11,884 bases of DNA from a virus (IMGVR_UViG_2541047849_000001); one strand, 5' to 3'. Numbered from the stretch's first letter, positions 3,147 through 3,365 are shown. Made by a program: numbers and translations. The notes: generated from the sequence alone by a model not told the origin.

Positions 3147-3365
3147 TCACAGTCCCCATTGTTTGTTCTTAAGTTCGATCTCCTCCTGGCAACTTGCACA
3201 AGTCCGACAACCCTGAACAGCCAGGCGTCTTCGCTCATCTATCGGATCGCCACACTCACAACAATGAGTTGCGGATACAGTCTGGTAGTTCTGACGACGC
3301 ATTTTTATTGCTGTATTGCGCTGTAATTCTTCGATTTCTGATGCTGAATCAATGATGTCTGCCAT
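3147..3365 (-). CDS. TraR/DksA-family C4-type zinc-finger protein (phage-encoded)
   Basis: 72-aa ORF with Cx2C-x17-Cx2C motif (C-CE-C...C-AS-C), characteristic of the TraR/DksA zinc-finger family found in prophage early regions. Confidence 0.85.
   Translation of the reverse strand: MADIIDSASEIEELQRNTAIKMRRQNYQTVSATHCCECGDPIDERRRLAVQGCRTCASCQEEIELKNKQWGL

Follow-up and report, generated by a model that had tools for sequence, protein, structure and literature searches.

Orf73 of bacteriophage lambda, a small protein that acts on RNA polymerase (RNAP), has been characterised in some depth by Gopalkrishnan et al. 2022 (PMC9239242). The purified protein binds RNAP directly and competes for it with DksA, and both rrnB P1 (IC50 about 50 nM) and rpsT P2 are inhibited without any need for ppGpp. 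Variants D3N and D6N are defective, and the protein complements a dksA deletion strain. The lambda gene is driven by pL early during the lytic cycle, and in vivo its product lowers rrn and rpsT transcripts and slows growth of the host, while phage yield is 3-4-fold higher with Orf73 and burst size goes up. Promoter activation by lambda Orf73 is weak, and poorer than that by TraR, a property that the authors tie tentatively to two extra cysteines (PMC9239242). For TraR itself, cryo-EM has placed the N-terminal helix through the secondary channel as far as the active site, the globule on the beta' rim helices, from where it contacts Si3 via E46, R49 and K50, and the C-terminal helix against the beta lobe-Si1; P43 and P45 are required for binding (PMC6970531). 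The transcription signals around orf73 have been listed for lambda and Phi24B by Bloch et al. (PMC4195576), who predicted two terminators, t1 and t2, the latter given in their Table 4 and lying between orf61 and orf73. A BPROM-predicted promoter, p1, is also given before orf73 in both phages, with a -35 of TCATCA and a -10 of TTTTATTAT, and it overlaps t2. In the same work, orf73 mRNA was found below that of the upstream genes in lambda, and in Phi24B it was high, especially after H2O2.

The stretch of DNA analysed here, 11,884 nt in full and hereafter called the window, carries on its minus strand an ORF that runs from ATG to TGA and translates as the 72-aa protein MADIIDSASEIEELQRNTAIKMRRQNYQTVSATHCCECGDPIDERRRLAVQGCRTCASCQEEIELKNKQWGL. 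The coordinates of this gene and of the surrounding features are collected in Table 1. The zinc-binding motif read from the translation, C35-x2-C38-x17-C56-x2-C59, aligns with the four TraR cysteines, and two further cysteines are present, C36 and C53. The Pfam model PF01258 (zf-dskA_traR) matches residues 33-64 with 37.3 bits against a gathering score of 24.9 (E 2.7e-9), and PHROG 54, annotated as 'DksA-like zinc-finger protein', matches residues 1-70 (E 3.4e-26). The original prediction of a 72-aa ORF with a Cx2C-x17-Cx2C motif is thus borne out by the translation and by both profiles, and its placement in the TraR/DksA family is confirmed by PF01258, by alignment to TraR and by 86% identity to lambda Orf73. 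Antisense ORFs on the plus strand (3120-3326 and 3194-3355) were considered and rejected, since nothing supports them and the minus-strand ORF explains the conservation.

Table 1. Features of the window discussed in the text, in order of position.
Feature	Coordinates	Strand	Basis or remarks
proA	1-1254		
tRNA-Thr(CGU), thrW; attachment site next to proA	1369-1444	+	ARAGORN; Rfam RF00005; SfI attP core annotation
Tyrosine integrase, int	1459-2622	-	Pfam PF00589, E 5e-48
Excisionase (HTH_17), xis	2499-2849	-	Pfam PF12728; TIGR01764; SfI xis; overlaps the DUF4222 gene and int
DUF4222 protein, 92 aa, directly downstream of the studied gene	2821-3099	-	Pfam PF13973, E 1.9e-19; PHROG 285
72-aa lambda Orf73-type TraR-family zinc-finger protein	3147-3365	-	Same as RefSeq WP_000763390.1
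Translation initiation region	3366-3380	-	AGGGA at -15 to -11 and GGAAG at -5 to -1 relative to the ATG
Candidate promoter of the original prediction, TTGTTC-17 nt-TATTAA	3391-3419	-	Weak; 7/12 consensus positions
Intrinsic-terminator-like hairpin, AGGGAGCT-ACA-GGCTCCTT plus T tract	3415-3443	-	Scan; corresponds to t2
Upstream ORF, function unassigned, long form of lambda orf61	3464-3778	-	PHROG 303; PHROG 26061
Phage Dam-type N6-adenine DNA methyltransferase	3756-4313	-	Pfam PF05869, E 2.3e-56; RefSeq annotation in the intact relative (L001)
Terminator-like hairpin corresponding to published t1	4381-4403	-	Scan; sequence match to PMC4195576
Deletion junction	4438-4443		blastn against L001 and L004; gene order of the intact relative

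Within the family, the evidence points to the TraR branch. In a phmmer search of PDB sequences, residues 1-69 align to residues 1-71 of F TraR (5w1s_M), and the alignment to 6n57 likewise begins at residue 1. An AF2 model built from 63 homologues (mean pLDDT 80.1) consists of helices at 5-27, 44-49 and 57-70 with the zinc globule between them, and Foldseek against the PDB returned TraR in complex with RNAP (6n57_M, probability 1.00, TM 0.53) as the first match, followed by YbiI, TraR 5w1s and DksA. A length of 72 aa, where about 70-75 aa would be expected, and the succession of N-terminal helix, zinc globule and C-terminal helix both agree with the architecture of the TraR subfamily. The scan against NCBIfam returned no equivalog or subfamily model above its curated cutoff: TIGR02419 (C4_traR_proteo) reached 54.8 bits, 4.9 bits below its cutoff of 59.7, with E 1e-14 and coverage of profile positions 1-64 of 64, and the F TraR equivalog NF010268 scored 26.1 bits against a cutoff of 108. 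NCBIfam was not used to file the protein, as all models fell below cutoff. The lowest E-value in the PDB search belonged to YbiI (2kgo; 7e-6, against 6.5e-5 for TraR), with an alignment restricted to residues 23-67; a YbiI-like identity was rejected because the match is confined to the zinc finger and the YbiI equivalog NF008243 scores well under its cutoff (44 bits against 96). Hence, the protein is neither F TraR nor YbiI, but a phage paralogue inside the TraR branch.

The closest relatives of the gene are found in phages. A tblastn search of phage genomes yielded 85.9% identity to lambda 30401-30613, the translation of which, MADIIDSASEIEELQRNTAIKMRRLNHQAISATHCCECGDPIDERRRLVVQGCRTCASCQEDLELISKQRGSK, is lambda Orf73, and 98.6% identity to gp31 of phage SfI (SfI_0031, JX509734), from which the protein is separated by the single substitution Q25L. 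The likeness to lambda Orf73 extends over the full length (85-86%) and takes in the same N-terminal helix, DxxDxA included, and the same six cysteines. Residues 1-24 are identical between the two proteins, as are residues 31-61 but for A49V, and the remaining differences are at 25, 27, 29 and 30 of the linker and at 62, 63, 66, 67 and 70 of the C-terminal helix, plus the tail. Altogether, the allele differs from lambda Orf73 at 11 positions and by one residue of length, the lambda protein having 73 aa. The C-terminal helix reads QEEIELKNKQWGL in the window and QEDLELISKQRGSK in lambda, and five of the differences, E62D, I63L, K66I, N67S and W70R (window residue first), are in this helix, the element that contacts beta Si1. 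At the DNA level, blastn reports 96% identity to lambda over window positions 3170-3759 (590 bp), and this homology stops about 8 codons, or some 24 bp, short of the stop codon, which places a mosaic boundary within the region encoding the C-terminal helix. The window protein has its ending, of the form QEEIELKNKQ(R/W)G, in common with Citrobacter and Enterobacter homologues, and the tryptophan at position 70 is a minority state (9/63 homologues). Over codons 1-64, pN/pS calculated against lambda alone is about 0.05/0.20 (ratio about 0.25), a weak test of selection because the remaining alleles retrieved show at most one residue of difference. On sequence grounds, the gene is an orthologue of lambda orf73, and nothing in its product falls outside this well-characterised kind.

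Conservation of the residues known to matter in TraR can be followed position by position. In a six-sequence alignment that includes TraR, D3, D6, A8, C35, C38, R46, R47, C56 and C59 are invariant, and the DxxDxA tip is present as D3-I-I-D6-S-A8. Among 63 homologues with identities as low as 60%, the counts that retain the residue are 60 for D3, 62 for D6, 63 for A8, 59 for R46 and 61 for R47. TraR P43, E46, R48 and R49 correspond to P41, E44, R46 and R47 of the window protein, whereas two further TraR positions are changed, P45 to D43 and K50 to L48, in the same way as in lambda Orf73. These two replacements may explain the weak promoter activation by lambda Orf73. The extra cysteines stand at TraR positions 38 (C36) and 55 (C53) and differ in their conservation: C36 is variable (24/63), and C53 is conserved (57/63) to an extent close to that of the zinc ligands C56 (60/63) and C59 (58/63), which suggests a structural or redox role for C53 in this subfamily. 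The acidic tip on which the original prediction depended is therefore complete (D3, D6 and A8), and the alignment that it had proposed, to TraR and lambda Orf73, is full-length to both proteins with the tip residues retained.

Comparison with the described proteins of the family sharpens this assignment. With F TraR (PDB 5W1S, 6N57/6N58) the window protein shares a similar size, the three-element architecture and the best structural match, together with DxxDxA, CxxC-x17-CxxC and the equivalents of P43, E46, R48 and R49; it differs in being only 31% identical, in its two extra cysteines and in its context, a prophage as opposed to the tra operon. DksA has the same zinc-finger Pfam family and an acidic tip, and it occupies the same RNAP site, as the competition shown for lambda Orf73 demonstrates. 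On the other hand, DksA is larger (about 151 aa), contains a coiled coil of two helices and needs ppGpp for full activity, whereas the window protein has a single N-terminal helix and belongs to a ppGpp-independent class. YbiI (PDB 2KGO) is about 50% identical in the zinc-finger region (residues 23-67), but it is 88 aa long and the N-terminal tip helix does not align with it.

Given that lambda Orf73 has been tested experimentally, 86% identity to it supports the reading of the window protein as a candidate modulator of RNAP. The steps by which it would act are drawn from this characterised orthologue and from the structures of TraR with RNAP. As a monomer, the protein would insert its N-terminal helix into the secondary channel of RNAP, so that D3, D6 and A8 reach the region of the active site; the Cys4 zinc globule would rest on the beta' rim helices, with R46 and R47 in the place of TraR R48 and R49, and the C-terminal helix would contact the beta lobe-Si1. 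The conformation of RNAP would thereby be shifted, with no involvement of ppGpp or of DNA binding, and kinetically sensitive promoters for rRNA and ribosomal proteins would be inhibited. In an intact lambdoid phage, the gene is an early one of the pL operon, its block being transcribed from pL with N antitermination in intact relatives, and its product redirects host transcription during lytic growth, with a larger burst size as the outcome. For the window allele, we infer the RNAP-binding mechanism with high confidence, and its biochemical activity would follow from the 86% identity to lambda Orf73.

The genes around the ORF are those that had been predicted, namely a 92-aa gene, here recognised as DUF4222, xis and int, all on the minus strand. 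The studied gene lies 47 bp from the DUF4222 gene, which overlaps xis, as xis does int, and nothing terminator-like separates any of these genes. Co-transcription of the four is plausible given a transcription start or read-through at this point. The order from orf61 through t2 and the gene to xis and int is the same in lambda, in SfI and in an intact prophage at thrW, and in lambda, too, orf73 lies downstream of an orf61-type ORF and the t2 hairpin in a leftward operon. Downstream, the lambda gene is followed by ea22/ea8.5 and the lambda xis and int, whereas the window has DUF4222 and xis and int of the P22/SfI type. The likeness to SfI comprises the int-xis-DUF4222-gene order and an attP core in thrW; SfI is nonetheless a complete phage, as opposed to the deletion remnant in the window, and its annotation gives the gene as 'hypothetical protein'.

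Signals for translation and transcription were compared across the same set of loci. Both the translation initiation region and the 115 bp upstream of the start codon are identical in 10/10 fetched loci encoding the same protein. A terminator-promoter pair had been predicted at 3391-3441, and of this pair the terminator stands, its hairpin being t2. The promoter is a weak consensus match, and the sole published proposal at this place is p1, a BPROM prediction with slightly different hexamers. The hairpin (3443 to 3425) folds with -10.2 kcal/mol (z -2.2) and is identical in lambda, in SfI and in 10 other loci, with a T tract one base off that of lambda. The proposed promoter matches 7 of 12 consensus positions, has no T at position 6 of the -10 and presents TTGTTC at its -35-like hexamer, where lambda and SfI have TTATTC. 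A promoter scan of positions 1300-4800 detected no sigma-70-like site on the minus strand, and on the plus strand matches were no more numerous than in shuffled sequence. The predicted -10 of p1 reads TTTTATTGT in the window as against TTTTATTAT in lambda. In an Rfam scan of the entire window the tRNA was the sole hit, with no known RNA element near the gene.

The prophage in which the gene resides is a deletion remnant. Its intact relative at thrW, in E. coli QEC11-421 (L001), is 99.3% identical over window positions 1-4443. On the upstream side of its Dam gene it has DUF1317, exo, bet, gam, kil, cIII, N, cI and cro, and then genes for replication. In the window, homology to the early-left region (DUF1317 gene, minus strand) ends at 4443 and homology to the 3' part of the tail-sheath gene (plus strand) starts at 4438, with about 6 bp common to both sides of the junction. 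Of the sheath gene, only about 85 codons at the 3' end remain, and beyond them come genes for the tube, the tape measure and the baseplate; these tail genes are of the Mu-like baseplate/tail type, as in related prophages. This break in homology indicates that one deletion took everything from exo through most of the sheath gene, including N, nutL, pL, cI and the genes for replication, lysis and the head. The junction was found in 0 of 5426 complete E. coli genomes, and the single record covering 84% of the window is a circularly permuted SfI-like prophage with a different arrangement. Further signs of decay are seen in the tail genes. An in-frame TAG at 6828-6830 divides the tape measure gene in two (5454-6830 and 6834-7361), and since the prophage of E. 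coli ET201 (L004) has CAG (Gln) at this codon, the TAG is attributed to a C-to-T nonsense mutation. Relative to the same ET201 prophage, a second deletion of 851 bp is located at about 10218 (L004 7274 to 8125). The original view of a cryptic prophage is accordingly well founded on the large internal deletion, the 851-bp deletion and the tape measure nonsense codon. As a result of the deletion at about 10218, a baseplate V-like ORF (9838-10251) is now joined to a J/gp47-like ORF that is truncated (10221-11003).

For the studied gene, the main consequence of this history concerns its expression. Since homology to the early-left region stops at 4443, the window has neither pL, the native promoter of the gene, nor N and nutL, which by antitermination would carry transcripts past t1 and t2, and the deletion has thus cut the gene off from both. 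Lying behind t1 and t2 with neither pL nor N, it is inferred to be expressed at a low level or not at all. It seems most reasonable to postulate that the gene encodes an Orf73 orthologue with a TraR-like mechanism and that it is here most likely a passenger, silent or expressed weakly, beside int and att, a reading to which we assign a probability of about 0.85. Both the reading frame and the 115 bp before it are intact in a remnant devoid of pL, nutL/N and repressor, and the gene would be kept on account of the adjoining int/att rather than as an active regulator of the host. Points that weigh against this reading are the substitutions relative to lambda Orf73, five of them in the C-terminal helix, the changed TraR positions P45 and K50 and the TIGR02419 score just short of its cutoff; against the silent-passenger part stand p1, the high orf73 mRNA of Phi24B after H2O2 (PMC4195576) and the return of the identical allele, upstream region included, in other truncated prophages (L010 and L011).

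The wider distribution of the gene has to be considered alongside this local picture. It is present in 3340/5426 complete E. coli genomes, at up to 7 places per genome, and a public assembly collection lists the exact protein in 12,176 blocks. The exact protein occurs in lambdoid prophages with varied immunity regions and integration sites and also in truncated remnants, among them L010 and L011. These are independent remnants that retain the block formed by int, xis, DUF4222, the TraR-like gene and an orf, and in both the truncation lies directly upstream of the block, caused by an IS element in L010 and by a deletion bringing in a Q antiterminator gene in L011. As the same block is kept in both, retention of the att-proximal block is recurrent.

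Such retention could also be expected if the gene had been domesticated as a host effector. In that case, the deletion would have freed the gene from cI, and a local promoter, either p1 or the candidate at 3419-3391, would drive it constitutively or under stress, with the product mimicking DksA, independently of ppGpp, and so adjusting rRNA synthesis and growth of the host. It is consistent with this proposal that neither the reading frame nor the 115 bp before it differs from the copies in intact prophages while neighbouring parts decay, that L010 and L011 keep the same block independently, that p1 is predicted upstream of orf73 and Phi24B orf73 mRNA is high after H2O2 (PMC4195576), and that growth is slowed, and a dksA deletion complemented, by ectopic Orf73 (PMC9239242). 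However, no minus-strand promoter reaches the scan threshold between 1300 and 4800, the candidates having 7/12 matches or a spacer of at least 18 nt, and a G variant in the window alters the very -10 that BPROM predicted for lambda. Genes adjacent to int and att can persist in remnants through their position, with no selection required, and the occurrence of the junction in 0/5426 genomes suggests that the deletion is probably recent, which makes intactness a weak sign of selection. Moreover, transcripts of rrn and rpsT did not respond to orf73 in lambda lysogens at 30 C (ratios 0.95 and 0.93; PMC9239242). We therefore regard domestication as unlikely. A more specific form of exaptation, in which an Orf73-type factor made from a weak local promoter would serve as a ppGpp-independent, DksA-like brake on rRNA synthesis, maybe with redox control through C53, is in our estimation decidedly unlikely.

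A main target other than RNAP has likewise to be weighed, the zinc-finger protein being either YbiI-like or a direct inhibitor of host replication initiation. Earlier work cited in PMC9239242 had linked orf73 and the genes beside it to a block of replication initiation in the host, a 'bin' phenotype having once been mapped to the ea8.5-ea22-orf73 region of lambda, and YbiI does precede TraR by PDB E-value and matches through NF008243 with E 2.3e-11. Yet the similarity to YbiI covers residues 23-67 only and the equivalog score is less than half its cutoff, whereas TraR aligns from residue 1 with the DxxDxA tip included; furthermore, the near-identical lambda Orf73 binds RNAP, and dnaA promoters are affected by it only at 10- to 40-fold higher concentration (PMC9239242). 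A target of this kind is hence very improbable. Finally, the evident decay of the host prophage, with two deletions and a tape measure nonsense codon, might suggest a chance ORF or an inactivated pseudogene, but the full-length frame, a protein identical to the copies in intact prophages, the presence of all family-defining residues, the pN/pS of about 0.25 against lambda and the translation of lambda orf73 reported from ribosome profiling (PMC9239242) leave next to no room for it, and on the intact frame and conservation it is effectively refuted already.

The identical protein is already named "TraR/DksA family transcriptional regulator" in RefSeq, so the finding is not new, and as the family, the mechanism and the role in lambda have already been published it is of little weight alone. 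Nevertheless, the gene for what would be a potent ppGpp-independent regulator of RNAP occurs once or more in over 60% of complete E. coli genomes, and in remnants such as that of the window an Orf73-type gene is uncoupled from phage repression. If orphaned copies of this sort were expressed, they could add to differences among strains in growth-rate control and in the stringent response.

A minor observation concerns the upstream ORF, for which several starts can be proposed: a TTG giving 104 aa, the ATG at 3745 giving 93 aa and the ATG at 3679 chosen by RefSeq, giving 71 aa. In its shorter form the ORF spans 3464-3682. The ORF matches positions 1-93 of the 101 in the PHROG 303 profile. In the lambda region compared (L002 3090-3500), the 61-aa product of orf61 is the same as that of the upstream ORF through ...ANSEIKK and diverges thereafter, so that lambda orf61 looks like a frameshifted or truncated form of the longer protein. 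This would account for some 220 bp that look 'empty' in lambda, between the end of orf61 and orf73. One genome contains a frameshifted copy of the upstream ORF, which is labelled 'ZapA' in RefSeq.
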